DNA from: Chiloscyllium plagiosum
Taxonomy: Eukaryota
Assembly: GCF_004010195.1 (NCBI RefSeq)
Contig: NC_057718.1
Span: forward strand, 92,977,569 to 93,041,568
Reading direction: 5' to 3'
Length of the DNA: 64,000 bases
This document shows, in pieces, positions 3,901 to 64,000 of this stretch (its first letter is position 1; the number at the start of each line of letters is the position of its first letter). The translations under genes and the position numbers were made by a program. The notes beneath the pieces were generated by a model. The model worked only from the letters and a program-made list of their open reading frames with translations. It was not told where the DNA came from and ran no database searches.

Positions 3901-4845
3901 AGTATTTTCTGCTCAACGCTCCCAGAAACACGTTTTTTTTTAAAAAGTTACTGGACATTTTCTGGGGGAAATTAAATCACATTGTTCCCATTTAAAATGT
4001 ATTTGTCAATATTCTGGTCCTTTCTGGACTCTCTAAACCAAAATGAGAGTTTTGGTTTAAGATATGAAATCCAAAATATTACTGCCCTAAAACATTTCTG
4101 ACAATTAACAGAAATCGTGTGAATCATGCATTTTCAAAATGCGTTTTCTTTTTCTTGTTTTAAAGCGCGTTGGGATAGCTAGAAGCTGCAGACAATTTGT
4201 TCCGCAGTAATATTTAATGATATTAATGGCTTTATTTTTAAATGTGCCCATTCAGTTATATTCGTTTACACCTCCGAAGCACGACACGAGCCCTTTTTAA
4301 TGGCATTACTATAACCCAGCGAATTGTTTGCTTTAGTCGATTAAAAGGGAAACAAGCTTCAGAAATATACACGCATTAGCCGTTCGTTAATCCAAAATGG
4401 TCTCTTTAAATAAGCATTATGGGACCCATAAAAAAACCCATGCATTATCCACTGAAAGAAATTGGATCCTGTTTGCAAGTGCGTTTTGCAAGAAATAAGT
4501 TCGAAAGGAGGGTCAGTGGACCCGAAACGTTAACTCTGCTTACTCTCTACTGAGAGTTTCCCCAGCAATTTCTGTTCGTGACAATCAATTTCTAACTCAC
4601 AATCTCACTCAAACTGCAATGAGAAACGCGGCCCATCTCAGTGAAAATTGCTTTAAAGTAATCCTGACATCGACGACATTCATTGCCATGCGCGAGTTAT
4701 TTTGGTTTCACTCCTTCGACCGCGAAGAGGAGATCACGTCAGTTTCAGGATGGAATTTAATGGGGGAGGGAATCAATAAAGTAAGTCGGTCAATTTTGGT
4801 TCAGATTTGTAATTTCGCCTCTCGATGTCTCAATACCGGGGTATA

Positions 4846-5046
4846 ATTCCTGATGAAAGACTCTTGCCCGAAACTTCGCTTCTGCTGCTTTTCGGATGCT
4901 TCCTGACCTGCTGTGCTTTTCCAGCACCACACTCTCGACTAAGTTACTATGTTTAGGTCAGAGAGGTGCTGGAAAAGCACAGCAAGCCAGGCAGCATCCG
5001 AGGAGCAGGAAAATCGACGTTTCGTGCGAAAGCCCTTCATTAGGAA
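4846..5046. mobile_element. Inverted pair of short Penelope-like non-autonomous elements (family A) with degenerate hammerhead cores
   Basis: + copy cctgatgaaagactcttgcccgaaac...ttttccagcaccac is followed by a reverse-complement copy gtgctggaaaagcac...cgacgtttcgtgcgaaagcccttcattagg. Confidence 0.7.
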
Positions 5047-6134
5047 GAAGTTATGATGTTACAGACTGCAATTCAAGGCAAGCCATGCACAGTGTAGTTC
5101 TGACACATACAATATACAGCAAAAGCTGAACACTAGCGCCCGCCGGTTCCATACAGTTGGGTTGTTTTTAATCCCCTCGCATGCAACGTCTACACCAACA
5201 GTGACCTTGCTCGATACATCTCTTGTAGTCAATACAAAAAGAAATGACGGTTTATGTTATAGTAAGGCATTCAGTCCTTGCACTTTTAAAAACACAGCCA
5301 ATGCTTTGCACTGATTTATTTAACAACAACTTTGCAGACTTGATGCTGTTTTTCACGAGCTACAGTGAGCTCGCTTCCTTGCAGCACGTCGAATGCTGCT
5401 CCGACAGCTTTAAAGAAAATACAACTACCACGAAATGTAAAACTGAACTTTTTTTTTAAACTTCTGAATGCGTTGCAACTTGTAGCCAAGAGTAGAAGCA
5501 TTCGGAGGTTTTGTTCTGCACTCAGTCACGGCACGTTCGTGTTTTCTGAACTGATCCGTACAGAGACGCGGCAACCTTACCTTGATTGGAAAGCTGTTTC
5601 CTCTCACTCAGGGAAGCCCGTGGGTCGGTGGCATTTTTGCAAAACGGGGCTTATTTTTTTTTTTGCAGTGCAGACTCCCCCCTCAGCAATGCATTTGTCA
5701 TCGAACAGCCAGCGTTACTTGAGACCTCGCCGCTCATTCCCAGCCCTCGACAATAACTGCGCCCCCCCGAAACACACCCCCATCCAAACACCACCCTGCC
5801 CGCGATCTCCACCAGGGGGAGACACCCTTCTATTCAAACTCAAGACATCCTCTCACAATGAGATACGGGCACTCGCGGGGTCAGACAGAGTTTGGGATTT
5901 TCACTTGAATTGCATTTTCTTTATAATACGCTGTCTCCAGGCTGCATAGCTGATTTTTGGGTGCTTCTGTTGTTTTCATTTTCTGATTGAGTGTTATCTA
6001 GAAATTCGATTTTTGAACAATTATCCTTGTTTCCAAATTCCATTACAAACTCGACCCTCCCCATCTGCGTGACCTCCTCCTGGTCTGTAGTGTCCTGTGA
6101 TTGCTGCAAACTTCCACTCCTAGTCTCCATAAAC

Positions 6135-6535
6135 AATTGGAACAATTGGAGTAGGACGTTCGGCTCCTTGAGCCTACTCCACCATTCAACAGGATCATGA
6201 CCGATTCAGCATTCCATTTTCCTGCCCTTTTCCCAGCACCATTGAGTCCCCTCTTGATCAAGAATCGATCTCTCTCAGCCTTCAATATATACATGGACTC
6301 TGCCCCCGCAGCTCCCTGTAGCAATGAGTTCCAAAGACTGACAACCCTTGGAGAGAAGAAATTCCTCCTCATCTCAGTCTTAAATTAGCGCTCCTTTATT
6401 CTGAGACTATGCCCTCTGGTCCCGGACTCTCCCATGGGGACAGCATCCTCTCAACATTGATCCAATCAGGCCCTTTAAGCATCCTGTATGTTTCAATTAA
6501 ATCGCCTCTCATTCCTCTAACCTCCAATGGGTGGA
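6135..6535 (-). mobile_element. CR1 LINE 3' fragment
   Basis: Minus ORFs MRRNFFSPRVVSLWNSL and RGDLIETYRMLKG; same tail family as 1-910. Confidence 0.85.
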
Positions 6536-6894
6536 ATGTCAACCCGTTTACCCTTTTAGTCTCCAGTGTGTCTAAACCTAACGCCATTCCCTACAGCTTT
6601 CTCCCTGTCATAACTTGTTTTTAGGATTCACTCTCTAAACTCCACAACCTTTGTGCTTCAGAAGAAAGATTAACAGAAACAAGGGAGGGCCATTCAGTGC
6701 CCTCCACCCTGGTTCAGATAGTGCATATCCACTTATTCGCTCCCGGCTTATTAAAATACTCGACCTATCTGCACAGCATAGTAAAGACTTTAAAATGTCC
6801 CCTTAAAACCTTTACACCGGTTACTTTCCAGTCACAGAGCTCCAGATAGAATTCGCAGTCCTGGGCTGAAGCAGAGAAATATTATGATCGACCG

Positions 6895-7530
6895 TCCAGT
6901 GCAGTACTTGAGGTAGATCGGATTGAAGATGGGGAGCGCTGCAATATCGGATGTGCCCTGTTTCGGGTGAAATATTGAACCAAATAGGGCATTACGGTGG
7001 CTCAGTGGCTAGCCTCACATCGCCAGGGACCACGGGTTTAATTCCACCCTCGGGCAACTATTTGTGTGGAGTTTGCACAGTCCCCCCTTGCCTGCGTGAG
7101 TTTCCTCTGGGTGCCCCGGTTTCCTCTGACAGTCCAAAGATGCGCAGGTTAGAGTGCAACAGATCATGCAACATTACCCATAGTGTCCAGGGGTGTGCAG
7201 GCTAGGTGGATTCGTCATGGGAAATGCAGGGTTGCGGGGGGGGGGGGGGGGGGGGCGCTGGATCTGGGTGGGATGCTCTTTGTAGGGTCAGTGTGGACTC
7301 AGTTGGGGCGAATAACCTGCTTCCACACTGCAGGGAGTCGAAGTTTTAACTGTCTGTTCCTGTGGGTGTAAAAGCTGAAGAGGAGGGGAGTTATCCCGAG
7401 AGTGCTGGTCAATACTTACCCCTGAATCAACCACCCTCTCCATACACAATATCAGAATATTGATGTCTTCCGGGTTTTGTCTTTTGGCAACAATAACTGC
7501 ACTTCACAAACAGGGGCTCAGGTGCTACAC
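6895..7530 (+). mobile_element. DeuSINE (SacSINE1/AmnSINE1-like Deu domain) relic, interrupted by an HE1 SINE
   Basis: gcagtacttgagg...gagcgctgcaatatcggatgtgcc...tttcgggtgaaatattgaacc before the SINE and gaagaggaggggagttatcccgagagtgctggtcaatacttacccc after it resemble the Deu domain as recalled. Confidence 0.55.
6987..7335 (+). mobile_element. HE1-type tRNA-derived V-SINE
   Basis: tggctcagtgg A-box, ggtttaattcc B-box, tgtgtggagtttgcac V-domain, tttccacactg tail. Confidence 0.85.
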
Positions 7531-8539
7531 AAAGGCAAGTTTTGTTTTATTTCGATGTCACCTTTTGTGGGTCACCTTCCAGTGAACCATTTTGCGATCC
7601 TGCAGTTTTTGATGTGTCAGCATTTTCTTAGCTCATGAAAAATTGCAAAAATCCGTGAAACCTGCTGAGCTCAACCCGGGCTAGCACATCACTTCCTCCT
7701 TTTTTTTTATACAAAAACATCTACCTTTTCCAACTCCTTAAAAAAAAGAAACGTGGAATTTATTCCAAAAGAAAGAGCAGTTGAGGTTGGATCAATTGGA
7801 ATTTTGAACACCACCTTGGAGAGATTAGTTAGGAAAGGTAGCTGTTGGTTATAGGACTGCACTGGGTCAACATAGATTAGGTACAGTGCACCCAGAATCT
7901 AATTGATAGAACCCAGGGTAGAGGGGAGGTTTGCCCACGTTCCTTTCTGGTACTCTTTATTCTTCTCGATTTAAGGTTGACTAAGAAATTGTACCGGATA
8001 CGGGCGGTTGAGGACTGTACCTCATTTTTGTTTTGGCCTGTTCACACGCCTATGCATTTTTGCTTTAACACAACAGTTCCCGAGAAGTGAGCAGACATCA
8101 AATAGAGCTCTGATTTATTTTGACTCTTCAAACGAGTCTGACGGTTCCTGTTAATAAAACAAAGCCCCAGCAATCCACATACACAGCGGACAAAATATAT
8201 GCGTGCGATTTTACTGAACTGGACAGCAGCCAATACATAATACCCCAAAATATATCCCTGTTGCAAGCTTTTCGGGTACCAATCTTTGGAAGGCTGTTTG
8301 CAATTTGGGAACGAAGGGGTGACTTTTTCCCCCAATATTTATTCAAGGCTTCGATCCACGTTCATTGAATTAATCTTAGCCGCTAATTTTAATTTGTATT
8401 CAGACACTAAAACGAATTCCTGCGGCAAATATACTAGGTGTGATTTTCTCACTGAGAAAAGGCAAGTGTGTCACCTTGGAATGGATCACAAATCGATTGA
8501 CCCGTTGCTAATAAATAAGCGGCTTTCATTCTAATTTAA

Positions 8540-8627
8540 AAATCACAAAACATCAGGTTATAGTCCAACAGGTTTAATTGGAAGCTCCTTCATCAGGTGG
8601 TAGTCCAACACCGGCATCTCCAAATCA
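8540..8627. mobile_element. Short Penelope-like element (family B), internally deleted
   Basis: Perfect 15-bp TSD ttcattctaatttaa at 8525-8539 and 8628-8642; caggttatagtccaacagg core shared with other copies. Confidence 0.75.
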
Positions 8628-9410: not shown

Positions 9411-9510
9411 ATAGAGAGAGGAGAGAGAGAGATAGAGTGTGTGTGTGTGAGAGAGAGAGAGAGGAGGGAAGAGAGAGAGAGAGGAGGAGAAGAGAGAGAG
9501 AGAGAGAGAC
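9411..9510. repeat. (GA)n/(GT)n compound microsatellite
   Basis: Direct reading. Confidence 0.95.
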
Positions 9511-10420: not shown

Positions 10421-11600
10421 CACAGAGTCATACAGCACAGAAACAGACCTTTCGGTTCAACCTTTCCAAACTAGACTCGTCCCACCTGCCTGTACTTGGC
10501 CCCTATCCCTCCAAACCTTCTTCTATTGTGAATTTATATAAATGTCTTTTAAACGTTGCAACTGTACCTGCATCCACCACTTCCGCTGACAGTTTATCCC
10601 ACACACGAATCACGGTCCGTACCAAAATGTTGGCCCTCATGTCCTTTTTAAATCTTTCCCGATCACCTCAAAAATATGCCCCCTTAGTTTTGCACTCCTA
10701 CACCCGAGGGAAAAGACTCTTATCATTCACCTTATCTATACACTTCATTATTTTATAAACCTCAAAAATGTCACCTCTCAGCCTCTTACGCTCCAGCGGA
10801 AAACAGTCCCAGACTTTCCAGTTATTTTAATATCTCAAAACATCCACCCCCGTCAACATCATGCTAAATCTTTTCTGAACTCTCCTTAGTTTAATAATAG
10901 CTGAAAATGTGTTGCTGGAAAAGCGCAGCACGTCAGGCAGCATCCAAGGAGCAGGAGAATCGACGTTTCGGGCATGAGCCCTTCTTCAGGAATGAGGAAA
11001 GTGTGCCAAGCAGGCTAAGATTCTCCTGCTCCTTGGATGCTGCCTGACCTGCTGCGCTTTTCCAGCAACACATTTTCAGCTCTGATCTCCAGCATCTGCA
11101 GTCCTCACTTTCTCCTTAGTTTAATAATACCCTTCCTACATCAGGGTGGCCAGGATTGCACACAGTACTCCCGAAGTGTCCTCAGCAACGTCCTGTATAA
11201 TCACAACATGATGTCCCAACTTCTGTACTCAAAGGTCTGAGCAATGAAGGCAAGCATGCTAAATGCCTTCTTAACCCTCCTGTCTACTTGTAATGCAAAT
11301 TTCAAAGAATTACGTACCTGAACCCCTAGTGTTCTACAACCACTACCCAGGGCCCTATCATTAAAGTCATGTTCTTGTTTGTGTTATCAAAATGCAATAT
11401 CTCCCTTTTACCCAAATTAAACTTCAGCTGCTACTCCTCAGCCCATTGGCCCAATTGATCAAGAACTCTTTGTAATCTTCTTCGCTGTCCACTGTACCAT
11501 TAAATTTGGTGCCATCTACAAACGTACTTACCATGCCCTCCTACAAATTCTCATCCAAATTATTTATATAAATGACAGGCAAAAGTGGACCCAGGACCAG
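10421..11600 (-). mobile_element. CR1 LINE 3' fragment (RT and tail), interrupted at 10900-11110
   Basis: HER-type tail catacagcacagaaacagacc; reverse-complement RT segments similar to LEYCVQSW and FVDGTK. Confidence 0.85.
10900..11110. mobile_element. Fold-back Penelope-like element (family A) with hammerhead core on the - strand (about 10957-10993)
   Basis: Inverted arms gctgaaaatgtgttgctggaaaagcgcagca / tgctgcgcttttccagcaacacattttcagc. Direct repeat tctccttagtttaataata at 10881-10899 and 11111-11129. Confidence 0.8.
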
Positions 11601-12642: not shown

Positions 12643-13216
12643 GTAAGCAGCGAACTACTATTCGCATGGTTCAGTGGCGTGGGTTTGATAACAGAGCAGG
12701 GAACTTGCTCTGTACACGCGAAGGATCAGAACTGGGGCGAGAGAATTCTCGCCGCTGAATGATTAGACTTCGAGGGACGTTTTTACAATTGGGAAGTGGG
12801 GAGAAAGGGCAAAGCTAGCCCGTTTATTTGATTACAAAGGTTGCGATGTTGGCTAAATATTGAAGGGGGGGGGGGATGGGGAGAGCTGAGATTAATGGCA
12901 ACAGTCAGAATTACAAACGGATAGGACCTGTTTCTGAGAAATAAGGTAGTGTCTGTGTTTTGCAGCGTTATAAATGCTCATGGTAAGGGAAGAGGGGAAA
13001 TCTAACATAATTGGAGGGGTGTTGATAATATGGAAATACTAGAGCCCAAAATGCACCACTTTATAGTTAATTATAAGCCCCCACCCGCGTGGACTTGCGT
13101 CGCAAGCTGGAGTTTTTCATTTGCCTCAAAACTTGCCGGAGGAGCCCTCCGCCGCAGGCCGTTTAGTTAAATATTACTTTATTGTCTCTTCCCGTTCCTA
13201 CCTTCCTGCCCCGCAG

Positions 13217-16507: not shown

Positions 16508-16624
16508 TAGGAGCAAATTATTGCAGATGCTGGAATCTGAAAAAATGCTGGAGATCACAGCTTGATTTCTCTCCAAGGGTGCTGCTTGACCCGCTGTGAT
16601 CTCCAGCATTTTTTTTGTTTTCTA
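16508..16624. mobile_element. Short fold-back Penelope-like element in PAX1 intron 4
   Basis: Arms aaaaaatgctggagatcacagc / gctgtgatctccagcatttttt; TSD-like accagttc(a/c)atg at 16496-16507 and 16625-16636. Confidence 0.65.
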
Positions 16625-16790
16625 ACCAGTTCCATGCTTGTCCGGACAGGTTCCATGCCGAGTGTAACCGTCCTAACTAAAGATGGCGTTCACTTATTTT
16701 GTGATAATTCGGCTAATGAGAATATGAAGTGGATAACACGGTCATCTGACGCAGAGCGTTCCAGTTATTAAAGTGCTCCTTATCCAAGTA

Positions 16791-16983
16791 CACAACACCA
16801 GGTTATAGTCCAACAGGTTTAATTGGAAGCACACTAGCTTTCGGAGCGACACTCCATCAGGTGATTGATCAGGAGCGTCGCTCCGAAAGCTAGAGTGCTT
16901 CCAATTAAACCTGTTGGACTATAACCTGGTGTTGTGTGATTTTTAACTTTGTATACCCCAGTCCAACACCGGCACCTCCGAAT
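16791..16983. mobile_element. Fold-back Penelope-like element (family B) in PAX1 intron 4
   Basis: Inverted arms of about 60 bp (cacaacaccaggttatagtccaacaggtttaattggaagcac and its reverse complement). Perfect TSD cttatccaagta at 16779-16790 and 16984-16995. Confidence 0.85.
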
Positions 16984-18981
16984 CTTATCCAAGTAATTCG
17001 CTATGTTTTGAAAGCACTCCTCGCTACCCATGTAAGGCAGTGTCCAGTTGCAGTTTACCCCAGACCTTTCTGCTCTCACTGTTAGTGCAGATTATCTACA
17101 TGTCTTGTTACCAATTAATATCCTGAACTGTCTTGACACCAATTAATACTGAGCCGTCTTATTTCAAACTATATGCCCAATAGTGTATTTTATTTACCTC
17201 ATCTGACAAACCATTTCCCAACATGTTCAACATGTCCCAAAATCAATGTTCAATTTTCCAGCACTACTGACAAAGAACAAAAGCTCTCGCCCAAAATTCC
17301 AATTCTTTTCCAACCATTTGCAATATATTGTCTACAGTACTTCGCGTTTGCAGCGGTAGCGTCTAGACGTGAGAACCTGCTTGAATTAGTTGAAACCAAT
17401 TGGCTCTATTTATCCGGCACTATTTTTATTCCCACACTCCAGAAGAAAAAAAAAATCTGCTAGTTAGACCTTGAGCTCTAATATTAAAAGGATTGCACTA
17501 TGGTAGTTAAAAGCACGTATGTGACAAGCTGTCACAGTTGTCTGTACTGTGAATATTTAGAATTTTCCTGTGTGTATTGCAAATAGATGCTAATTGAGCT
17601 AACTGAGGTGGCAACCATTAAAACAAAATGTGATTTCAAGTTATGAAGTCCACTATTTCCTTTACTTTGTTTTCTCTTTGACCAGCGTTAGATTTAGGGG
17701 CTACTGTTAATGATTGAAACTAGCCCATTCACCAACTGACGACCTTTACTGGCCAAAGCCAATCCCTGCATTAACAGTGGGTGTCGGAGCTGCCTTTGAT
17801 TTCTGTGGTCAAATCAACGCAGCGTTCGTTAAAAAAAAAACATCTGGTCATATTGAATGTGACAATTCGCAAATGCAAAAATAAAATGCATGTTAGATTA
17901 AAAAAAAATCAGTGGTGTTAGGATTTACAGACAGAGGAAGTATTGAAGTTCAAACAAATGAAGCAACGGTTTGAATTTGAAACTTTTGAGCAAGTGAACT
18001 GTTTTTGTATTCGCAAGCACCACGTAATTGGGTGGGTAAGGCAGCAACTTTAACACTCCCACGCTACAAAAGTACATGTTTCCAAATGTTTAAATGTAGT
18101 GCTGGGTTCAATTTGCTTTTACTTGTTGCTTCTGAATACCTTGGCCCAATGCGTTCAAGGAAAATGTGTGAATATGAACAACAATGGAAAGGAGCCTCGA
18201 GCTCGGGCCCAGCAGCTAGTATTTAGTTTCCGTTCAGCATCCTAACCTTTAGATGATTACATTCTCCTTAAACTGCATGTGAGTTTTTTGTTGGTTGGGG
18301 TTGGGGGGCGTTTGGGATTCATAATCGAGGAAACTAGGATACATTTTGCAGTAGTAATTTAATATTTGCACATACGAAAGCAAAAATGTCAGCGAGTCCT
18401 TATAATCCAGAGGGCGCCTACTTCATTTGCAAAGCATTTAGAGCCAATTCAGATAGATGCATTCCCGCGAGAGACTCGATTTGGATGCCTCGGGTACTGA
18501 TAACTCTCTTAAAAAAACACACACAATTTATCCCAACTGTGTGGAATCAGAGTTTTGCTCTGATCTAAAGCAAACGCATCAACGATGTTGGATCTCACTG
18601 CCAATTGTCGAGTGATTTCAGGGCACGAAATTGTGGGGAGATGGGCTGACAGATATCGGGCTGCTAATCTCGAATTGCGCATCTGTGCAAGAATCGATTT
18701 TCTAAGCAAATCTGGTGAACACACCGGAAGTGTGGAAGGTACATTATGACAGTGCAAGGTGAGAGTGCAGAGGGATGGCTGTTTCAGACGATGCCACCTT
18801 GTTTTTGCCAGTTACCTGAATTTATGTCATTAAAATTATTTTAAAAACCAGATTCGTTTGCTCTGACAATTACAATGTCCTTCCCTTCGCCTATCTGTCG
18901 TAAATTAATACTATGGCGTAATTCCCCAGCATGCAACCCCAGGTAGCAGAGACAGACCGTCTCTCTTCAGATTAATAACGA

Positions 18982-19121
18982 TGTGGAGGAGCCGGTGTTG
19001 GACTGGAGTGGACAAAGTTAAAAATCACACAACACCAGGTTATAGCCCAACAGGTTTATTTGGAAGCACTAGCTTTTGGAGCGCTGCTCCTTCATCAGCT
19101 GATGATTTTTAACTACACAGT
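18982..19121 (-). mobile_element. Penelope-like element (family B) in PAX1 intron 4
   Basis: ccggtgttggactgg...cacacaacaccaggttatag...gctccttcatcag; TSD-like atta(a/g)taacga at 18971-18981 and 19122-19132. Confidence 0.8.
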
Positions 19122-19576
19122 ATTAGTAACGAAATGGGGCTACTTGACACATATATGCCATTAGGTGCCGAGTTGAACCGAATCTGGAATCACCTTCGCT
19201 GTGTCATGTTGGCGAACTTGCCATGGCCACAGGGTCCACAGGAACTGGAGTTCGACTCTTGCGCTGTGCAGAGGTGGCCAATTCTGAATTTTCCCCTTCC
19301 ACATCTCAGTGTTTCACTTTCCAACCACAAACCAATGCTGTCCTTTCGATCCTCACGAGGCGAGAGATATTTTTGATATTGTTTCATTTTCCTGAAAACA
19401 ACGTGTAGGCGTCGTTTTGCCTCCATTAAACAAATCGACTCGTTTTCCTAAAATAGGTTAACACCAGAATAAACGTGAAACACCGTGTGTTAGTTGATAC
19501 TAGAAACAGTTAAATGAAAAGCGGCAGAAACACGAAAATGCTGGAACTGCACAGCAAGACAGTTAATATCCACCAG

Positions 19577-19679
19577 AGTTCAAAATCACACAACACCAGG
19601 TTATAGTCCGGGCTATAACCTGGTGTTGTGTGATTTTTAACTTTGTATACCCCAGTCCAACACCGGCATCTCCCAATCA
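19577..19679. mobile_element. Hairpin family-B element nested in an older related short element
   Basis: Near-perfect palindrome at 19582-19637; perfect TSD taatatccaccag at 19564-19576 and 19680-19692. Confidence 0.85.
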
Positions 19680-20298
19680 TAATATCCACCAGGTTAACGT
19701 TCCCATAGAGATGCTGACTCTCTTGTTTGATACTAAATGCGAATATCAGTCTCAGTGCAGACTCAGATCTGGGCATTTCACGCAGATGCAGCTGTTTTAA
19801 AATCAGATACCAAACAAAAAAAGTGCCGCAGCAAAGGGCTCTTTCGATTATTAAGAAAACATTTGCAACCACATTGGGGATTAACCTATAAATTCAATTT
19901 TAGCTTTGAGATCCAGTTTCCATATTTGCTGAATAGTTACATTTTATTGAGGAAAGGGATACTGTGTGTTCTAATCATCGCATTACTGACCGTATTTCCA
20001 ATTCTAATAAGTTACCATTCTGAACACGCGAAATGTACAGCTTTTGGGGCAAAGTAATTTGAATAATATCAAGATATTTGTTGGCGCATGAATATGTCTG
20101 GGCTTGAAAGGAATCTTAATGAATTCTCCTTATTAAGTCCTTTGGTCATCCTTGCCTCGTTCAGTTCAAGTTTGAGATAATTTGATGTATTGTTAACTAA
20201 GAGCTAAAATAAAACAAAGCTGCTTTGTCTGAGTGAGCAACTCGCAGGTCTGAATTGTCAAGGCTTTTTATTCCGCTCTCTCCCTGCTTTTCTTTCAG

Positions 20299-21459: not shown

Positions 21460-21666
21460 CGACGTGGAGGTGCCGGTGTTGGACTGGGGTGGATATGGTC
21501 AGAAGTTACAGGATACCAGGCTCTAGTATAACAGGTTTATTTGAAATCGTGAGCTTTCGGAGCAGTACTCCGAAATAACCCGATTTATTTGAAATCACGA
21601 GCTTTTGGAGCAGCACTCAGAAATAAACTTGGTGGACTATAACCTGGTGTCGTGGGATTTGTGACC
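21460..21666. mobile_element. Fold-back Penelope-like element (family B variant) with internal duplication
   Basis: Perfect TSD cagaaaataaata at 21447-21459 and 21667-21679; inverted accagg..tag.. / ..ctataacctggt arms. Confidence 0.75.
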
Positions 21667-24070: not shown

Positions 24071-25748
24071 GGTTTGTGAAAATTTATGTTCCCCCACTGC
24101 AGTGTGCCTATAATAACTTTGTTAGCTGGGGTTAAGTCTCCTACTGTTATGCATGCAGCATTTAATATTACCTTGAGCTCCATAGATTATGCTATTCACA
24201 TTGTACAGAAAATTCTGGCCACACGATAAAAAAACACTATAATTATTTTGAAGTATTTGCCAAATATTCAATATTATATGCTTTTCTCTCTACCGAAAAT
24301 ACTTCATTATTTTCCGGTGCTTAGCATAATAAACCATAGCTGTATTTTAGGATTTAAATAATGTCAGCTAGGAAGAAGACGTGAAACTGTTTCTTTTATA
24401 CTTAGTTACAATGTTTGATTAATCTTCAATCAATTTGAACAGGAATGAGCCCACAACCTACTACTGTTGCAATACTCCTCTGGTCGGTTGATGGGATTGA
24501 AGCACAATGCTGAGAGATGGTAGCATTTAATTGCATGTTGCTTTGACTGCATCTGATTTAGAAGTTCTTGGCTATGGTACAGGCTTTGCAAAATGTCAAT
24601 TTCCAAGTCGATAAATCCCTTAATTTAAGCTCAAAATTCGCCAAAATGTATATTTGAAAAATCAAACAATAATAATGGGGAAAACTTCGTGTGAACTAAA
24701 TATGGGCAATAATAAAGCTTCTATCTTTCATAAGATTAATTCAGGTCAATAGAAATGTTGAAGTGTTTTAAAACATGTGGTCTAACATTTCATTCCTAAC
24801 ATTTGCTATTTTAAATACTGCGCTCCTACGCATGCCATATAACACTTAATTGATGAAAAATGATGCCACAATTCATAATTTATAGCATTTTACACATTCT
24901 CTTAATTATTTTTGCAAAATAATTTACTTATTTTAGTTTTGCCTTTAAGTTACATTGACGATTGCTTTCTCTTTCAGCCTGTGGACCATAGTTACACTGT
25001 CTTATATTTCTGATTAGGGAAGCAGGCATTCTATCATATCAGCACATTGGTGAGAGTGAGAGGACAGAATATTATTCACGTTGAACAGTCCGATCATATA
25101 TGGTCCTTGTGTCTGTCAATATAATATATTTGCATAGACCCCATAAATATTTCAATCATCTCACTGACATTTTTATTACTTCTCCATTAACCATCACGGC
25201 ATTCGCCTCTGTCATACAACATGAAAATGTATTAAAAATCAAAAGCATTGGGTTAACCTATTTGAATGTTTCCTGGGACAGCAGAAATACACAAAACATA
25301 CGTATTAATTGAATGTAAATGAAAACTTTGGAATTCAACAATTAAACTCGATTGTTCTCCTACACTGGAAAATGTAGCAAATATTATTTCTCGTTGTGAA
25401 AGTTATCATTCAGTTCACCATTTTCAATTATTGTCACTTATTGATTTATATTGTTTAGAACATGGGAATGTGAGGATTATGCACTGAGAATTGTTACACA
25501 TATGAGGTTTAAGATCTGAAGAAGTCTTATTACTTGTTAAATGTTAACTGTTTCACTCTCCACAGATACTGCTAGACCTGGTGAGTTCCTCCAACACTTT
25601 CTGTTATTATTGCAGGGTTTATAAGATTGTTGTGTTTCAGTCCTCTCCCCTTAATTTGGGGTACGAAGGACGGATGAATGGGGTCATGTGACCTGTTAAG
25701 AATTCTGGTCCATAACAAGTTTGTGTGGCTTCATTGCTCAAGAGCCGT

Positions 25749-30242: not shown

Positions 30243-30374
30243 TAGGAGAAAGTGAGGACTGCAGATGCTGGAGATCAGAGTCTAGAGTGTGGTGCTGGAA
30301 AGACACAGCAGGTCAGGCAGCATCTGAGAAGCAGGAGAATCGACGTTTCGGGCATTAGCCCTTCATCAGGAATC
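30243..30374 (-). mobile_element. Family A short Penelope-like element with intact hammerhead core
   Basis: Minus strand reads CTGATGA A GGGC TAAT GCCC GAAAC GTC (about 30337-30374). Confidence 0.8.
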
Positions 30375-31346
30375 GGTTTTATGTATTAATATTAGTATTT
30401 AATATTTAGTATTTAATATTACCTCCAAAAATGATCCACTTTACAAATGGTTGTTCTGCAGATATTGTCGTTAGTGTCTAATTCTCTTCTCAAAATAAAA
30501 TGTAACATTTTTCTACCATGAACGCATTGTGAGAAATCTTATAATTCAACAGTCTTTAGCATATGACTTCTGACAGAGGGTGCCATCCACACGACTGAAT
30601 ATATGACATTGAGCTATCCATAATATATTCAAAGCTTATCAACACTCTTCAACATAAATTCTTTTAACAACATCCATAAAGAAACTTGCCTGCATTGAGG
30701 TACCACAATGTAATTACACACTTCTATTCGTGGTGGTGCTGTGGCACCTCAATTTTGAATTTCTGGGTTCCTCAAACTGCACTGCATAGAAAACCATACT
30801 CTGCCACTAATTTAATTCCTCTGTTTAACAAACTGGCATAAGTTTGTAAAAGTATCACACAGCATTAAAGACAGAATGTACATGTTTAAAATAGGGAAAG
30901 GTTTCTCCCTGGATAATCTGAACAAACTATTCCGTACCTTCTATATTTCTCCCTCAACGTACATTTGTTCTTCACTGTTAGAAAAGTTTTGAGATCTGCA
31001 TTTCACTCAACCAAAGTATCTTTCATCTGGAAGTCTGACCAAGTCGAATTTCCCAGCAACCAATCAAGCTTTGTCTTCTGCTGGCTATGCATATTTTAAA
31101 GAAAATTTCCTCCAGCGCTATGCACACTTTTGCTGAGCAGCATTTCCTCCAAACCACAGAAGACCATTGGAGATTAACCAATATGAACCAGAAGCCGGAA
31201 AAATTGGGAATAGACAGTAGGTTAAATACTATCTGTCGCAATGAGATAATATGATGTTTCGGCGATGCAGCGGATATGAACATCTCTGGAACCATTCTGT
31301 TTCTATTTAAAAAAAAACCCAAAAAATCTGTGGATGTTGTGCATCC

Positions 31347-31445
31347 GAGTTCTGAGGAAGGGTCATCCGATCTGAAACGTTAGCTCTGATTTCTCTCCAC
31401 AGATGCTACAAGACCTCCTGAGTTTTTCCAGCAATTTCTGTTTCT
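31347..31445 (+). mobile_element. Family C short Penelope-like element with hammerhead motif at 31347-31386
   Basis: GAGTT CTGAGGA A GGGTC ATCC GATCT GAAAC GTT AGCTC, then ctctccacagatgct...ccagcaatttctg. Confidence 0.7.
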
Positions 31446-37640: not shown

Positions 37641-37847
37641 TCACAGAGTTATAGAGGGGCTACTCCATGCTGATTGACAGATGCAACACGACCATGTGGC
37701 TTATATTCTCTATAGATGGAGTCAATTGTTGGAAGGTTGGCTTGCGTGATAGACTGAGCTGTGTTCACAACTCTCCATCGCAGAGTTATAGAGCGGCTAC
37801 TCCATGCTGATTGACAGATGCAACACAACCATGTGGCTTATATTCTC
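37574..37847. repeat. Tandem duplication, 2 x 137 bp
   Basis: 37574-37710 and 37711-37847 differ at 3 positions. Confidence 0.95.
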
Positions 37848-37938: not shown

Positions 37939-38066
37939 GAGTTCTGATGAAGAGTCATTGGACCTGAAACATTAACTCAGCTTTCTCTCCACAGATCCTG
38001 CCAGACCTGCTGAGTTTTGCCAGCAATTTCTGCTTTTGCTTCAGATTTCCAGCAAATGCAGTTCTT
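37939..38066 (+). mobile_element. Family C short Penelope-like element with hammerhead motif at 37939-37978
   Basis: GAGTT CTGATGA A GAGTC ATTG GACCT GAAAC ATT AACTC, with a perfect 5-bp stem I. Confidence 0.7.
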
Positions 38067-39789
38067 AATTTTATTTTAGTGTCTATATCCAGCATACTTA
38101 TTTCCCCTTAAAGTTTTCCAGAAGGGAATGCAAAACGTTACAAGTATAAAGAGATTGCAGAAGACCACAGGTATGCAGGAAATTATAGGGCATCTATTTA
38201 CATTTTAATGCTCTGCCAAAGGTTGACACTCAAGCATTCAAAGTGACTTCAGCACTCTTTCATCCTTCTCTTCCGACCACTACATCTGGGTCCTGCTTTG
38301 ACAGCTGCAGCTGAGCCGGCAGAAACCTGTTGATTGTTTTCCCTCCTTGCCATTTGGCAGGTGTCCTCTGGTGGCAGTGGATCTTGATGGCTCTGGCACA
38401 ATGGGCATATCCTGCACAATTCTGGGCGCAACCACATCCACATTTGGATTCCTAGTGGAGGAGAGTTGTTGTGACAACTCTGGAGCTTTCTGAGAGGCCA
38501 ATTCCTGGTTGCCTGCCTTTTGCTCCTCATGTCTAGCTGTGTATATTTGCACCTCCTTTGCCTCTTGAGGCAGCTTGAGTGAGGTCAAGACCTGCTGGCC
38601 TCTGTCACTGAGCTATTGAGTGAACACATCTGTGGCTTGAGGGATTGAATAAAGATGCAGGCACATACCCTCCAGATACTGACTATTTTGCTGGACCTGG
38701 CTCCCCATGCTTACTGCCACTCACTGGAGGCAGCCATATGCCTGCTTACTGCAGCCATGACATCAGACAGAACTTGGGCAGATGCCTTGGCTTTTCACTC
38801 AAGCTTGTGCATGAACTTTGGCACCTTTGCTACATGTTGCAAGTCCCCGCACCTCTGTCAGCTCCTGGATAACTGAGTCCAGGGTCTCATCACCTGTTTC
38901 AGAATCAGCTAGTACAACTGCAGCATTTAAAAGGAATCTGAATAGGTATATGAATAGGAAGGGTTTGTGGGGATATGGGCTGGGTGCTGGCAGGTGAGAC
39001 TAGATTGGGTTGGGATAGCTGGTCGGCATGGACAGGTTGGACCGGGGGGTCTGTTTCCGTGCTGTACATCTCTATGACTAATGCTATGACAGGGGTTGTT
39101 CTCCAGCAGTCGTCCGAGTGTCAGAGTCTTCGGTTGTTACTTGCTCCTCTACATGCCGTTTTGTGTCAGGGCTGTGGTTATCAGAATGTGACCCTGCCCA
39201 GTCTACCCTCGACACATTATGCCCAGCGGTGGCAGTCTCTGCAGTGGCGGAGGGTGGGGAGGACAGTCTTTATTCTGTTTTCTTTGAGGTTCTTGCTGTT
39301 CATCTCAGGCACGTTCTTTGGGAGAGATGGGCCTGGCTGTTGGGGTTTTTTCATTGCCTGACCCTGGATTGTGAGTGGGATCCAGAGTTTCAGAGGAAAA
39401 ACAAAAAGCTTTCTTGGTCCCTAGATGCAGAAGCCTCACTTGAGGTTTATTGGTGTTTGATGTGTGGTTGGAATGATTTGCAGGATTTCTCATAGATGGC
39501 TGCAGGTATCCAAACTGCTCTTCCACACATGCACACTCACCTTGGTCTCCTGCCAAGTTGGCCTACTCCTGAATTTTTGCGAGCATCCTGATTTCAGATC
39601 CACAGCCCCATATGGTGACCCACACTCACACTGGTTCTGCACAATCTTCTCCCGCAGAAGGACAGAGGCATGAAAAGACATTAACCTGGGATTATGAGCA
39701 GCAATAGAAGCAGATAGAGTTGTGAATCCCTATTAATGTGACTGACCCTGTGTGAATCTGGCATGATGGATGTGGTACGGGAAGTTGTG

Positions 39790-41999: not shown

Positions 42000-42181
42000 G
42001 ATTTGAAGATGCCGGTGTTGGACTGGGGTGTACAAAGTTAAAAATCACACAACACCAGGTTATAATCCAACAGGTTTAATTGGAAGCACTAGCTTTCGGA
42101 GTGCACAACCACCTGATGAAGGAACGGTGCTCCGAAAGCTAGTGCTTCCAATTAAACCTGTTTGACTATAAAAAACTGGTG
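42000..42181. mobile_element. Fold-back family B element with hammerhead motif at 42110-42144 (+)
   Basis: CAC CTGATGA A GGAAC GGT GCTCC GAAA GCTA GTG; TSD ttatttgg(t/a)caa at 41988-41999 and 42182-42193. Confidence 0.85.
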
Positions 42182-44979
42182 TTATTTGGACAATGTCGTG
42201 ACACTTCATGAACAGTCACATGATGAGGTGGCTGTTGTTGCTTCCTGCTAAAAGTATATTAGCACAATTCCAACGGGCTTTCAGGACAATTCTATCAAAC
42301 TGAGAAAGTAGAGCAAGCAAAACCATTAGATCACCACTGTCGCTGAAGCAGCCAAAGTATCTAACTGCAATATCTTGAAAAAGATGGACTCTCATCTGAT
42401 TTGTGTCAATTTTCAGTTCACTGGAGAACAACTACAGGAATGTTTACAGCTGCTAATTCCAAAAATGTGCAGAACAGGTGGCCCCTCCATACTAAATTGC
42501 CCATAGCGTCCATGGATGCACAGGCTAGGTGGATTAGCCATGGGAAATGCAGGGTCAGGAGATAGGGTAGGATTGTGGGTTGGTTAGCTTGCTTTTCAGA
42601 GGGTTGGTATGGACTTTGTGGACTGAATGGTATGTTTCCATGATTCTATGATTCTAAGTAATTTTTTCTTTCTCAAAACCTTCAGAATAGTCAAAACATC
42701 AATTCAACTAAACACAGTTATCTAGACTTGAAATGTTATCTTGCTCTCTCTCCATGGATGCTGCCTGACCCGCTGTGATTTCCAGCAATTTTTTATTTCC
42801 AGTAGATTCCAGCATCTGCAGTAATTAGCTCCTACTAAAAAGCATCAGACCCGAAATAAAATTAAGACACTGAGTTAAATTCAATTTTTATATTAACTGT
42901 TTTTATCTCAGTTTGTTTGTGTGTGTGTGTGTGTGTTGCGACAAGATGTGGGATGCCAAATTTTCATTGAGCTGTGAGGCAAATATGTAGAAATAAAACA
43001 AATTTTAAAAGCACAAAAGCTTGCTGCTGGGCTATTAAAACTCCAAGGGTAAGAAAATATACATTTACAAAGATAAATATAATAATTACATGCAACTAAA
43101 AAGAAGGACCTAAAATTTGTCCATGATGTCAAGAAGAACAAAAGAGGTGATTTGTTTTAAGTTGGTGACTGAGATTTTTAAAACCTAGGAGTAGTTAAAT
43201 GATTCCTTTTGTCGAAGATCATAACTGTTAGATAACCAGAAATAAAACTGCATTTCCTAATTTTCAGTAGTGACTATAATTCTAAACAACAGAGCTGTTT
43301 ATAGGCTTTAACAAGGTTTGAAATGTGACATTGTGGAAGGAGTTTTATGAATGAAAGTCCTCTTCAACTCCAATAGGGAATTCAGGAATATCATCTTTAC
43401 TCTGAGATTGGTTAAAATATGGAATTTGCTACATAGCGCAAGGAGTGGTTCAGACAAATAGTATTTAAGGAAAAGCCAGATTAATGGATGAAGTGGAAAG
43501 AAATGGCTGGATGAGATGAAATGTTGTGGGATGGGAAAAGGCATGTTTTGACATAGACCAGTTCTGCTGAAAGGGCTGTTTCTGTTTGGTGAATTCCATG
43601 CGACATAACATGTCATATTGTCAGTGGCAATATTCTGTTAAAATTGGTCATAGAATGAAGATTTGTTTCAACACTAGTGTGGCAAATATGCTTGTTGTAA
43701 TGCTTCCCTTAATGAACAATGTAAAAATGGAAATACTTTGGCACACTAACCGAGCAGTTCTATCGGAGGAAACAAAATTGAATGCAAATGGGATTATTAA
43801 TCAGAGTGAAAAACTAAGATATAGCTTCGAAATGACAAAGTACTGCAACATACACTGTAGCAAAGATTTCAACATTTTCACCAAATCTGTTAGGAAGACA
43901 AACTAATTTGGCAGTCCTTTCTGTATTCCCTCAAAATAAATATTACTGGGATTTTAGAATTCTCATTGACTACTGTTGCAGCCAGATTTCAAAAGTGTAA
44001 ACATATATAATATCAATGTTAGATCATAATAGTAATCTTTTCCCATGATTGCATAATTACAAAGTCAAGTACAAAGGTGTTTGATCTTTCATTTGTGCAA
44101 AGACGTAAAAACCAACAAAAATGGCAATGAGGTGGGAGATAAAATAGAGCTATGTAGCTGCGCTGACTGACTTTTGATTCATTTGAAAACAACATCTGCA
44201 GTTCATTACATCAAAGCCAGGTTGCTCTTTAACAAAACATTCTGTCAGATAATAGGTTGATAGGAGAGGGAAGCTGCGTGATAAATATCATTTTCAATTG
44301 CACAAAATCAATAGAGTTCTGTACGAAAATAAAAACCTAGTTCCTGAATGAACTCTGAAAAAAAAATAGTGGTGTTCCAATCTTGAAAAGTAGAAGATGA
44401 AATATAAAACTTACTGCTGTGAGAAGAACCAGCATATTTAATATTAGGCCAAAATTTCCACTTAACTTATGAGCTCAGTGATTGAAAAAGAGTATTTGAA
44501 GATATGTTCAGTATAGAGATGAGGGTCCTAGCATGACAGCCTTTATTTAATTCATTGGTCTGATCAGGCTAGAGAAAGTTACTGTAGTGAACTTTCATTG
44601 CTGCTACAATTTTTACAGAGACTGGAGAAGTATTTTGATGACTGAAGAAATAGTAAGGCGTGTTTCAGATAAATATCTTGCTTTTGTTGAGAAAAGACAC
44701 AGCACTTAACTTGCACCATACTGATAGAATTATAAATAAGACAATTCAATCAGTTAACATACGATGTGGGTGCTCATTGGGAGTGACCAAAAGAAAAAGC
44801 CAAGGTAGAAGGAAATGCAAAATTCATGAGGTAGCTGCAATACAAGTGTGTAATGGCCTGAAAGGGTTTGTACTGAGTCAGGGAAGCAAAGGGCAGAATA
44901 TTACTTTGTCAGCTGTGTGAATTACATTGAATGTTTTGGCGGCATTTCACCACAAAGAATATTAGGATTTCTTGAATTT

Positions 44980-46249: not shown

Positions 46250-48800
46250 ACATCATCCCTGTGCCTAAGAAGGCTCATGCAGCATGTCTCAATGACTACT
46301 GCCCAGTGGCCCTAACTTTGGTGGTCATGAAGTGCTTTGAAAGGCTGGTCATGGTGTTAATCAACTCCAGCCTCCCCACTACTCTTGACCCACTCCGATT
46401 TGCCTATTAGACCAACAGATCCACATCAGATGCCATATCACTTGACCTTCACTCCTCCCTAGAACGTCTTGACACCAAGAACAGCTACATAAGAATCCTA
46501 CTCATTGACTACGGTTCAGCCTTCAACACTATTGTTGCCTTGAGACTGATTACTAAATTGAGTTTTGAGAAGATTTATAGCTGAAAGATTCATTTCCAGA
46601 CGTTTCTTCAACATATTAGGTAACATCTTCAGTGGGCCTCCGCGGGCAGCACTGCTGCTGATTCTTACTCTCTATTTATATGTTTGGGTTTCTTTGGGTT
46701 GGTGATGTCATTTACTGGGGTGATGTCATTTCCTGTTCTTTTTCTCAGGGGGTTGGTAGATGGGGTCTAACTCAATGTGTTTGTTGATAGAGTTCTGGTT
46801 GGAATGCCATGCTTCTAAGAATTCTCATGTGTGTCTCTGTTTGGCTTGCCCTAGGATGGATGTGTTGTCCCAATCAAAGTGGTGTCCTTCCTTATCCATA
46901 TGTAAGGATACTAGTGAGAGAGGGTCATGTCGTTTTATGGCTAGTTGATGTTCATGTATTCTGCTGGCTAGTTTTCTGCCTGTTTGTCCAATGTAGTGTT
47001 TGTTACAGTCCTTACTCGGTATTTTGTAAATGGCATCAGTTTTGCTTGTTGTCTTGTATACGGGCTTTCAAGTTCATTAGCTGCTGAGTAGTCTGGCAGT
47101 CACCCTAACCACTGTCCCCGACATCAAAGACCTCTTGGAAATGACTGCCAGACTACTCAGACCCTTTGGCATCATGGTAACCCACAAACCCACCAACACA
47201 CTAAAACAGCAGCTGGTGAACTTGAAAGACCCTATAAGACAACAAGTAAAACTAATGTCATTTACAAAATACCGTGCAAGGACTGTAACAAGCACTACAA
47301 TGCACAAACAGGCAGAAAAATAGCCACCAGAATACATGAATATCAACTAGCCACAAAACAAAATGACCCTCTCTCACTAGTATCCTTACATACAGATAAG
47401 GAAGGACACCACTTCGACTAGGACAACACATTCATTCTAGGACAAGCCAAACAGAGACACACACGAGAATTCCTAGAAGCATGGCATTCCAACCGGAACT
47501 CTATCAACAAACACATCAAGTTAGACCCCATCTACCACACCCCCTGAGAAAAAGAACAGGACATGACAGCACCACAGGAAATGACATCACTGACCCAAAG
47601 AAACCCAAACATATAAACAGAAAGCAAGAATCAGCAGCAGTGCTTTGACCGGAGGCCCACTGAAGATGTTACCTAGTAAGGTGATGAAAAGTCTAGAAAT
47701 GAAATATCCAGCTCAGCGAGCAAACCTACATCCAGAACTGATTATTAAACTTAATGATCTCGGACTAAGCCCCACTCTCTGCAATTGGATCTTCAGTTTC
47801 CTGACCCACAGGCCACAGTCAGTGAAGATTGAGGACAATATTCCAACCTCACTAACACTCAACACTGGAGCACCCCAGGGGTACATACTCAGCTCCCTAC
47901 TGTACTCACTGTATACCTATGACTGCGTCACCTCATACCAGATTAATGCCATTTACAAGTTCACTAATGACACCACCATAGTCGGTCAAATCTCAGAAGG
48001 TGATGAAACAGACTACAGATGGGAGGTGGAAGACCTGGAAAAATGGTGGTCTGAGAACAACCTAACTCTCAATGCCGGCAAAATCAAGAAACTCATTATT
48101 GACTTTCAACGGGATGTTACTCATGCCCCCCTACACATTAACAGCACAGAGGTGGAACGAGTGGAGAGTGTCAAGCTCCTGGGAGTGGTCATCCACAACA
48201 AGCTTCCTTGGACTCTTCATGCGGACACACTGGTTACAAAGGCCCAACAACATCTCTTCTTTCTCAGGCAGCTGAAGAAATTTGGCATGATGGCAAATAC
48301 CCTTGCCAATTTTTAAAGGTGCGCCATCAAAAGCATTCTGTCTGGATATATCACTACCTGGTATGGCAACTGAAAATCAAAGTCAGAGATGGTTACAGAG
48401 AGTGGTGAACTCAGCCCGGACAATCACAAAGGCTAACCTCCCATCTATAGAATCCATTTACCAGGCCCGCTGTCAAGGAAAGGCCGCCAGCATTCTCAAA
48501 GATCCATCCCACTCTGGCAATGTTTTTCTGGAACCTCTACCATCAGGAAGAAGGTACAGAAACCTGAACACACGCACCAGTCGGTTTTGAAACAGTTTCT
48601 ACCCTACTGTTGTGAGAATACAGAATGGACTCACAAACTCTTGATATTCGCCTGCACCTGTGTTTTTGTTTTTGTTGCTGATAACCTATTATTTACTATC
48701 CATGCTCCTTAACTCTGTGATCTGCCTGTATTGCTCACAAGACAAAGCTTTTCACTGTGCTCGATACACGTGACAATAAATTCAATTCAATTCAATTCAA
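46250..48800 (+). mobile_element. Rex1/Babar-clade LINE, 5'-truncated, split by a Penelope insertion
   Basis: [37 protein letters not shown] and LGLSPTLCNWIFSFLTHRPQSV..LNTGAPQGYILSSLLYSLYT..KFTNDTT; tail gtgacaataaa(ttcaa)n. Confidence 0.9.
46558..47736. mobile_element. Penelope-like element, fold-back of two inverted 3' halves with GIY-YIG remnant and hammerhead motifs
   Basis: Right arm encodes NVIYKIPCKDCNKHY..QTGRK..TRIHE (GIY-YIG) and the left arm is its reverse complement. TSD actgatta(c/t)taaa at 46545-46557 and 47737-47749. Confidence 0.9.
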
Positions 48801-50533: not shown

Positions 50534-50692
50534 GTGTTGAAAAATGTGGTGCTGGAAAAACACATTTTGAACGTAGATTTCTCCAGCTTCCTCATTTCTC
50601 CTGCTCCTCGGATGCTGCCTGGCCTGCTGCATTTTTCCAGCACCACATTTTTCAACTCTGGTCTCCAGCATCTGCAGTCCTCACTTTCTCCT
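50534..50692. mobile_element. Family A fold-back element
   Basis: Arms gttgaaaaatgtggtgctggaaaaa / tttttccagcaccacatttttcaac; TSD ccatgaagaaa(t/c)at at 50520-50533 and 50693-50706. Confidence 0.75.
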
Positions 50693-57645: not shown

Positions 57646-57834
57646 GGAGTAAATCATTGCAGATGCTGGAATCTGAACAGAAAACAACAAATGCTGAAGG
57701 TCACAGCAGGTCAGGCAGCATCCATGGAGAGAAAGCAAGCTAACGATTCGAGTCGAGATGACTTAAAACATTAGCTTGCTCTCTCTCCATGGATGCTGTC
57801 TGACCCACTGTTATCACCAGCATTTGTTGTTCTC
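57646..57834. mobile_element. Fold-back short Penelope-like element
   Basis: Arms aacaacaaatgctg..cagcatccatggagagaaagcaagctaa / ttagcttgctctctctccatggatgctg..cagcatttgttgtt; flanks cccgaacaaca / cccgaataata. A related copy lies at 42715-42835. Confidence 0.75.
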
Positions 57835-62394: not shown

Positions 62395-62905
62395 TGAGAA
62401 AGGATGTACTGGTACTGGAGGGGGTGCAGAGGAGGTTCACTCAGTTGATTCTGGAGTTAAGAGAGTTGGCTTATGAGGACAGATTGAATAGACTGGCACG
62501 GTACTCATTGGAATTTAGAAGAATGAGGGCGGATCTTATAGAAACACATAAAACTACGAGGGGAGTAGATAAAATGGAAGCAGGAGGTTGTTTCTACTTG
62601 GGGGTGACACGAGAACTAAGGGGCATAGTCTCAAAATAAAGGAAAGCAGATTTAGGACTGAGCTGAGGAGACACTTCTTCACCCAAAGGATTGTGAATCT
62701 GTGGAATTCCCTGCCCAGGGAAGCAGTTGAGGCTACTGCATTAAGGCAAAGATGCATGGATGTTTGAACAGTAAAGCAATTAAGGATTATGATGAGCGGG
62801 CGGGTAAGTGGAGCTGAGTCTATGAAGAAGATCAGCCATGATCTTAATAAATGGTGGCTCGAGGGCTCAGATGTCCTACTCCTGCTCCTTGTTCTTCTGT
62901 TCTTC
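62395..62905 (+). mobile_element. CR1 LINE 3' fragment inserted in a DeuSINE relic
   Basis: ORF RKDVLVLEGVQRRFTQLI; Deu-like sequence continues on both sides (62200-62393 and 62906-63012, minus strand). Confidence 0.85.
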
Positions 62906-63657
62906 TGTTCTCTGAAATAACAACATGAGATATGTATTGTCTGCCTATGAGGATAGATGGGGCCTAGATTTAGTGTCTCATCTGAAAGGCAGCACTTTTG
63001 ACAGTGCAGCACTTTTTGAAGATATCAGTCATAGGTTCACCTTTCATTCACTTTCACTGGAATGTTTGTGGGATATTGCTGATGTACAGTAACTTCTGGA
63101 ACTACATCTTCCAACGCGTGCATTCTTGTATATTGGCAAACTCTGATGGGCATTAGTAGAGGAACAAGTGCTAAATTGAAAAGGAATAAATGAGAAACAT
63201 AAATACAACACTGTCAATGTGCATTTATGTAGCACCTCTAACATAGTCAAATAACACAAAGGTGCTTCACTGGAATGTTTTCATTTTAATATCAATCCTG
63301 TTAGGATGGGACTGAGTGCAATTAGAAACTACAGCACCATTTTTTGTAGAAGCTGTGACATTATTTGAGTGGCATTTGAAAAAATAATTGAAAGCTCATG
63401 GCATTTCGAAAGGTGACTAAGGTAGTGGGCAGGTGACTGTCTATAGTTCTTATTTATACGGCTTTCCAGAAAACATTTGAAAAATTCCCAGTTGAATTGC
63501 ATGGAATTGAAGAAAAATTATTCATCCATTCAGATGTTGGCTGAGTGGCAGCAGACTTAGAAAAAGAATAATGGAGTTGATACTCTAGTTAATCAGGAGG
63601 TGTCTGGTATTGCTTGCAAGGTTCAGTTGTTGGGAACTCAACTATTTTGTGTTGATT

Positions 63658-63747
63658 CCTGAAGAAGGGCTCATGCCCGAAACGTTGATTCTCCTGCTCC
63701 TTGGATGCTGCCTGACCTGCAGCGCTTTTCCAGCAACACATTTTCAG
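63658..63747 (+). mobile_element. Family A element of 90 bp that begins at the hammerhead core
   Basis: CTGAAGA A GGGC TCAT GCCC GAAAC GTT; TSD ctat(t/c)ttgtgttgatt at 63642-63657 and 63748-63763. Confidence 0.85.
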
Positions 63748-63769
63748 CTATCTTGTGTTGATTGTCAAC

Positions 63770-64000
63770 TTAGTTAATGTGGTTCTGTTCGCCAAGCTGG
63801 AAATTTGTGTTGCAGACATTTCATCCCCTGTCTAGGTGACATCCTCAGTACTTGGGAGCCTCCTGTGAAGCGCTTCTGTGATATTTCCTCTGGCATTTGT
63901 AGCGGTTTGAATCTGCCGCTTCCGGTTGTCAGTTCCAGCTGTCCGCTGCAATAGTCGGTATATTGGGTCCAGGTCGATGTGCTTATTAATTGAATCTGTG
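63770..64000 (-). mobile_element. Penelope-like element 3' end, running off the window
   Basis: Minus translation TDSINKHIDLDPIY matches NSINKHIKLDPIY at about 47497-47537; hammerhead-like motif at 63812-63851. Confidence 0.8.

Follow-up and report, generated by a model that had tools for sequence, protein, structure and literature searches.

Minimal type I hammerhead ribozymes of Penelope-like elements (PLEs) have been known since 2014 and are reported from the Neptune, Poseidon and Xena elements of fish. Several families occur per genome, mostly as single dispersed motifs ascribed to truncated PLEs. We analysed such motifs in a stretch of 64,000 nucleotides from the shark Chiloscyllium plagiosum (assembly GCF_004010195.1, contig NC_057718.1, positions 92,977,569 to 93,041,568; hereafter the window), together with copies from the rest of the genome. 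The three families of short repeats found here, A, B and C, are a very abundant example of this known kind of element, and the mechanistic addition is the 5' start of the short copies with its extra G. No report on sharks was found in a literature search that left most subscription papers aside; the supplements of PMC4209133 and 10.64898/2026.07.22.740005 may list shark families.

The closest described systems are the following. Cleavage by PLE hammerheads was low and dependent on dimers or protein (PMC4209133, PMC11167929). PLEs with an endonuclease (EN+) have pseudo-long terminal repeats (pLTRs) with an initiator-like motif, a tail of 30-40 bp at one end only, target-site duplications and an adjacent inverted, 5'-truncated copy, and their pLTR and tail overlap the element start (Arkhipova, 2013, PMC3846280; Craig, 2021, PMC8557442). 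In the anole Poseidon element PAc, studied in vitro, two start sites of reverse transcription bound the tail, both target strands are extended, the hammerhead is assisted by protein, uncleaved RNA is the main substrate, and RNA-seq ends are not seen at the cut (Frangieh, 2024, PMC11167929). Non-LTR retrozymes (LTR, long terminal repeat) are small, PLE-related and equipped with type I hammerheads; they are defined by tandem units with complete ribozymes and by circular RNA (Cervera and De la Peña, 2020, PMC7229834; 10.64898/2026.07.22.740005). At full-length L1 and SVA junctions, a single untemplated G between the target duplication and the first transcribed base is ascribed to the cap (PMC3287187).

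All nine hammerhead motifs proposed in an earlier note on this DNA were found in place, with those of family C on the + strand, and they are indeed partly intact and partly decayed. A strict descriptor, requiring CUGANGA, a bulge, a stem II with at least 4 bp, GAAA-NN-UH and a stem I with at least 2 bp, was passed by four of them (10989 -, 30369 -, 31352 + and 63659 +), at a chance rate of 0.01 matches per shuffle on average (100 dinucleotide shuffles of the window). The remaining five are decayed copies: motifs 42110 and 37939 have an A-C mismatch within stem II, and stem II, III or I is broken in motifs 46596, 47657 and 63812. The last three, at GIY-YIG ends, do carry the core in decayed form, but they do not make up one group, motif 63812 belonging to another family than the other two. 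Its mirror arm just beyond the window has an intact core and intact stems I and III. In family A, stem I proved weak, with 2 bp, a U-U mismatch and then 1 bp.

The majority sequences of the families are intact. They share with known PLE minimal hammerheads the CUGANGA...GAAA..UH core with stems I and II, the bulge after A9, the G10.1-C11.1 pair and a palindrome at 15.2-16.2, and differ from them in the 4-5 bp of stem II in families A-C. The majority base at 11.1 is T in families C and P, a CpG site where G-U pairing is still possible. The stems vary between families and still pair, as had been claimed: when the majority sequences are compared across A1, B, C and the Poseidon-type lineage, 31 of 32 stem cells pair versus 18.5 after shuffling, and none of 100,000 shuffles (3' letters permuted among lineages) reached that number, in a test of four lineages only with templates seeded by the analyst from copies. 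Pairs were counted by position with a script, because the MAFFT alignment put family B out of register. The swap between ACGU and AGCU at 15.2-16.2 was confirmed as well. The motifs are real and, as the note held, are PLE-type minimal type I hammerheads whose helix III is palindromic; they are predicted to self-cleave as dimers or with the help of protein.

An Rfam scan gave no match to the canonical hammerhead families even at E<=10; its only matches were microRNA-type hairpins, all below threshold, which appear because the arms stand head-to-head. Minimum-energy folding and cofolding yielded neither an active hammerhead nor a helix III dimer, and are uninformative because the motif is so small. 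No pair of A box and B box at proper spacing was present on either strand of five reference units, searched with consensus boxes, which agrees with the proposal that the repeats are not RNA polymerase III (Pol III) short interspersed nuclear elements (SINEs).

Judged by their sequences, families A, B and C are pLTR and tail pieces of protein-coding PLEs, as indicated by a reverse transcriptase (RT) domain and 5' read-through in family A and by GIY-YIG ends in families B and C. Their derivation from Penelope elements is thereby upheld, and their description as three non-coding families is not: longer copies run upstream into GIY-YIG coding sequence, which ends 120-250 nt (A), 460-660 nt (B) or 350-550 nt (C; loci L100, L121, L129 and L130) before the hammerhead motif. 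In the longer family B copies (L042, L044, L055) the 460-660-nt 3' untranslated region (UTR) contains (CA)n. The GIY-YIG profile PF01541 matched L036 above and L129 below the cutoff. At 11 of 12 RT loci (PF00078), the same strand carries an A2 end 1-2 kb downstream. At locus L163, the A2 unit extends beyond the tail through a 5' UTR into an open frame joining the RT-bearing open reading frame (ORF); this read-through junction has 657 exact copies genome-wide. Standing both behind coding sequence and before the ORF start, the A2 unit is therefore both element end and RNA start, as in pLTRs. The closest database relative of the family A RT, 95% identical, is labelled Chiloscyllium punctatum.

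The CX2-5CxxC linker before GIY-YIG, a clade criterion (PMC8557442) shared by Neptune and Nematis, is present in family A (L038) and degenerate in family C (L100); the linker region of family B lies outside the copies captured. The linker is absent from the element at 46.6-47.7 kb of the window, which is classified as Poseidon-like. Positions within units are numbered relative to the predicted cut, +1 being the first base after it. Families A and C share sequence at +20 to +55 despite unlike hammerheads, which suggests a conserved protein-binding or priming signal. PLE ends are also often placed directly against the 3' end of a neighbouring PLE end, in some cases one from a different family (L042, L043, L129, window 63652-63790). 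Three ends of the second Poseidon-type family, two of them direct, the cores being intact, occur within 900 nt (L077:2154-3017) and are a candidate for a natural dimer.

The strict descriptor matched 19 times in 381 kb (40 arbitrarily placed genome stretches) and never in 15 shuffles. Scaled to the genome of 3.56 Gb, this corresponds to about 177,000 motifs (107,000-277,000), versus the approximately 4,000 and 9,000 given for coelacanth and Xenopus. The number of family A/B/C arms is about 0.6-1.0 million (83 sampled arms scale to 0.62-0.96 million). Exact patterns occur 62,715 (A), 15,205 (B) and 1,404 (C) times genome-wide and not once as reversed controls; the A:B:C ratio is rough because the three patterns differ in stringency. 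The window alone has 24 such arms, instead of the six counted earlier.

The 3' ends of families A and B fall at two sites about 35 nt apart, namely at about +55 to +70 or at +92 to +98. A target duplication accompanies 55 of the 78 head-to-head pairs that were examined (29 in A, 22 in B and 4 in C; two family B rows share one arm), and each of these 55 consists of one tailed and one untailed arm. It is missing from the other 10 mixed pairs and from every one of the 13 pairs with like arms. A tail of 30-40 bp at one end, an inverted truncated copy and a target duplication are the features of EN+ PLEs; the tail rule matches the one-tail-per-insertion rule described for PLEs (PMC3846280, PMC8557442), and the two 3' sites match the RT start sites that bound the tail in the anole element (PMC11167929). 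Most insertions here have only 95-135 nt per arm, with 5' ends clustered at one site, unlike the EN+ PLEs described in the same sources.

The orientation of neighbouring arms bears on the idea that the families are non-LTR retrozymes, whose tandem arrays self-cleave, circularize and reinsert. Within 1 kb, 107 arms form 25 head-to-head pairs versus 5 same-strand pairs (the latter not inspected singly); with this predominance of head-to-head neighbours, two sense ribozymes would not stand in one transcript. Animal retrozymes are derived from pLTRs in a preprint that also lists one chondrichthyan with arrays (10.64898/2026.07.22.740005). Of the 40 read-through copies sampled, 25 indeed have a second direct unit within 450 nt, by internal deletion, and both cores are intact in three; these internally deleted PLE copies are the sole retrozyme-like forms seen. 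The read-through class numbers only 657 exact copies against more than 60,000, the copies retain sequence on both sides of the cut, ends are not in excess at +1, and the motifs are minimal, not canonical. Units that are single or head-to-head and contiguous with GIY-YIG coding sequence do not fit the "retrozyme-like" label of the earlier note, and we regard a retrozyme origin as very improbable.

The internally deleted A2 elements (L183-L222) have their two direct units 180-450 nt apart. Some of their deletion junctions recur (L195 = L215; L185 = L207), which may reflect repeated template jumps or copied derivatives. Immediately after the tail, two loci (L205, L213) have tandem arrays whose 34-bp unit comes from the A2 5' UTR/ORF start; here a PLE has given rise to a satellite.

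The 5' ends were determined in 149 copies not selected by core, omitting 29 copies that start above -100 and those adjacent to gaps. They cluster 1-10 nt upstream of the core, in a zone of 8-10 nt that adjoins C3 on its upstream side. The interval -38..-29 (C: -36..-29) contains 32 of 84 starts in family A, 15 of 36 in B and 10 of 29 in C, where 6.7, 2.9 and 1.9 are expected under a uniform null; exactly at +1, these families have 2, 0 and 0 starts. Initiators have the consensus YYANWYY or BBCABW. The edge matches the former in families A and C, with the A at -32 and -34, respectively, and the latter in family B, with the A at -37. Ends at the cleavage site are not in excess in the 149 copies, nor genome-wide: purine-preceded starts number 418 at +1, about 450 of 942 at +4, a control of which roughly one half stems from subfamily A4 (by eye, 52 of 100), and about 4,700 at -32, so that +1 is no commoner than +4 and about ten times rarer than -32.

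The base before A(-32) was read by eye in the first 100 of 16,314 A1 matches. It is C, the parent base, in 66, G in 23, A in 6 and T in 5; the control two bases further in gave 32 G and 68 A. The excess of G is significant (Fisher p=1e-5; 3e-4 after removal of six ambiguous or inverted-arm junctions). Subfamily A4 has G 28, A 17, T 3 and C 39 among the first 100 listed, 13 rows with a different base at -31 being set aside. Target duplications were then read by eye in 28 G-preceded and 12 A-preceded copies. The G lies outside a readable duplication in 8 of 12 copies, four times as a single base and four times at the end of a filler, and the A in 0 of 10 (p=0.002). This resembles the G of L1 and SVA that is ascribed to the cap and was described for the L1 machinery (PMC3287187). 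Palindromic junctions recur in which both arms start from -32 and either enclose one G-C pair or share an overlapping GA microhomology; they fit a complementary DNA (cDNA) ending in an extra C. The literature search named above yielded no report of a cap-derived G in Penelope elements or of a solo pLTR with an initiator, the supplements being outside it too.

We propose that the short copies are dead-end cDNAs primed inside PLE RNA that ran off its likely capped, uncut 5' end, with a probability of roughly 0.7. Transcription by RNA polymerase II (Pol II) would begin at the initiator, upstream of C3 by 4-8 nt. The protein of the PLE, presumably a dimer, would bind near the RNA 5' end, nick both target strands and prime at two internal sites. 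Priming in the 5' repeat would produce run-off copies of 95-135 nt, as a single short arm or a pair of them. Long copies truncated at their 5' ends would come from priming in the 3' repeat, and the copied m7G cap would account for the extra G. Cleaved RNA would seldom serve as template, in agreement with uncleaved RNA as the main substrate in vitro (PMC11167929). We give even odds to the full chain, in which a capped PLE mRNA starting 4-8 nt before the hammerhead and a protein dimer with two internal sites yield run-off copies with a copied cap in mass. The anole element was studied in vitro and belongs to Poseidon; the evidence here is genomic, comes from lineages of putative Neptune type and contributes a defined 5' stop that bears an extra G.

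Several observations weigh against this proposal. The 5' ends pile up over a width of about 10 nt, and a large number of copies reach 1-6 nt beyond -32. In 4 of the 12 duplication-anchored G copies the G lies inside the duplication, in another four it stands at the end of a filler, and 18 of the 40 fetched copies are inverted or have no usable duplication. The extra G is weak in family B (5 clear G versus 3 A, p=0.12) and absent in the family C sample (1 G, 3 A and 1 T before AG; 24 loci). An intact full-length element was not present among 12 RT loci and 24 N-terminal loci, where assembly gaps and 5' truncation occur, and family A is the sole source of RT and 5' read-through. Finally, 1,425 poly(A) single-cell reads from 2% of one raw run (a second run gave no reads) covered both strands with no peak of beginnings or ends; they show neither a start site nor cleavage.

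The breadth of the peak would be expected if the short copies were ordinary 5' truncations of 3'-primed cDNA, with the RT pausing or jumping at the 5' edge of the hammerhead or at microhomologies. Many inverted junctions recur at short microhomologies in the edge region, and truncation is continuous in long copies. This leaves unexplained a G-specific excess at one position and an initiator match in three unrelated upstream sequences; RNA structure, moreover, is expected to stall the RT on entry, at its 3' side. Jumping of the RT to the product of cleavage was rejected on the evidence of A4, where the junction it predicts was seen once versus 14 clear G junctions. We therefore consider truncation a possible, though rather unlikely, explanation. 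Two other candidates were also rejected: a second hammerhead cut at -32, on paper, as stems I and III cannot form there, and a splice acceptor at the edge, as families A and B have no AG there and the upstream flanks differ.

A fixed start at an initiator-like motif and units of 95-135 nt flanked by target duplications would fit true non-autonomous elements as well, namely solo copies with an internal Pol II promoter that are re-mobilized in trans by PLE protein. The Penelope promoter of D. virilis lies inside the pLTR (PMC2377424), and pLTRs are described as able to mobilize sequence in trans (PMC3846280). In A4, only about 8 of the 100 copies listed keep master-like upstream sequence (by eye). 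Each A or B subgroup tested, however, has long as well as edge-starting copies, except B4, which has long and no edge-starting ones, and the upstream flanks are all different. The short copies stop at the tail, and the anole PLE, of another clade, needs RNA about 55 nt past the tail end (PMC11167929), which by extension would disfavour mobilization of such copies. We regard this explanation as unlikely.

If the run-off proposal is correct, the genome documents in vivo that cutting by the ribozyme hardly ever occurred in the inserting RNA, and several hundred thousand SINE-like repeats arose without any SINE master. Conservation of the hammerhead with covariation argues that the parents need the fold; the ribozyme would be kept by selection on the autonomous parents, where it may cleave slowly as a dimer or with the help of protein. 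The dispersed copies, single or head-to-head, have no second sense ribozyme in cis and are decaying, and are therefore likely inert. The junctions in this genome, which number in the hundreds of thousands, point to a defined start site, uncleaved templates and a strict rule of one tail per insertion, each testable with the published in vitro system. They also caution against annotating these repeats as SINEs or retrozymes.

Table 1. Features of the window (a dot marks features not assigned to a single strand)
Positions	Strand	Feature
4498..4576	+	Family C end-piece, core decayed
4846..5049	+ and -	Two old family A arms, tail-to-tail (4846-4940 + and 4962-5049 -), starting at -32 and -34
8533..8626	.	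Family B fragment, hammerhead lost by internal deletion
10899..11116	.	Family A head-to-head insertion, target duplication ~20 nt; untailed - arm with intact hammerhead 10957-10993, tailed + arm from +1
13171-13971	+	Paired-box exon (PF00292)
16563..16620	+	Family C-related arm without core
16790..16987	.	Family B head-to-head insertion, one arm untailed and one tailed; target duplication of 12 nt
18980..19103	-	Single family B arm with tail, from -34
19574..19681	.	Family B insertion, arms head-to-head and lacking a hammerhead; target duplication of 13 nt
21465..21660	.	Older insertion of family B, arms head-to-head; target duplication of 15 nt
25539..25611	+	Family C arm lacking the CUGA core
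30244..30376	-	Family A single tailed arm, intact hammerhead 30337-30374, G before the A at -32
31347..31457	+	Family C arm, hammerhead passes descriptor
37939..38075	+	Family C tailed arm, decayed hammerhead
42000..42183	.	Family B insertion with head-to-head arms, the + arm bearing hammerhead 42110-42144; target duplication of 12 nt
42722..42798	+	Family C-related arm without core
46558..47737	.	Poseidon-type PLE remnant within another RT-coding repeat, target duplication ~13 nt; two head-to-head arms, each a GIY-YIG end with decayed hammerhead (46596-46635 -, 47657-47696 +)
50594..50692	+	Family A tailed arm without hammerhead, from +2
57656..57810	.	Pair of head-to-head arms related to family C
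63652..63749	+	Family A arm, single and untailed, with hammerhead 63659-63690; target duplication of 16 nt
63777..64000	-	GIY-YIG end of the second Poseidon-type family with decayed hammerhead 63812-63851; mirror arm beyond the window (L223)

The paired-box exon is presumably that of Pax1 rather than Pax9. Two tandem copies of 137 bp, 98% alike, lie at 37574-37847 of the window, about 90 nt upstream of a family C arm.

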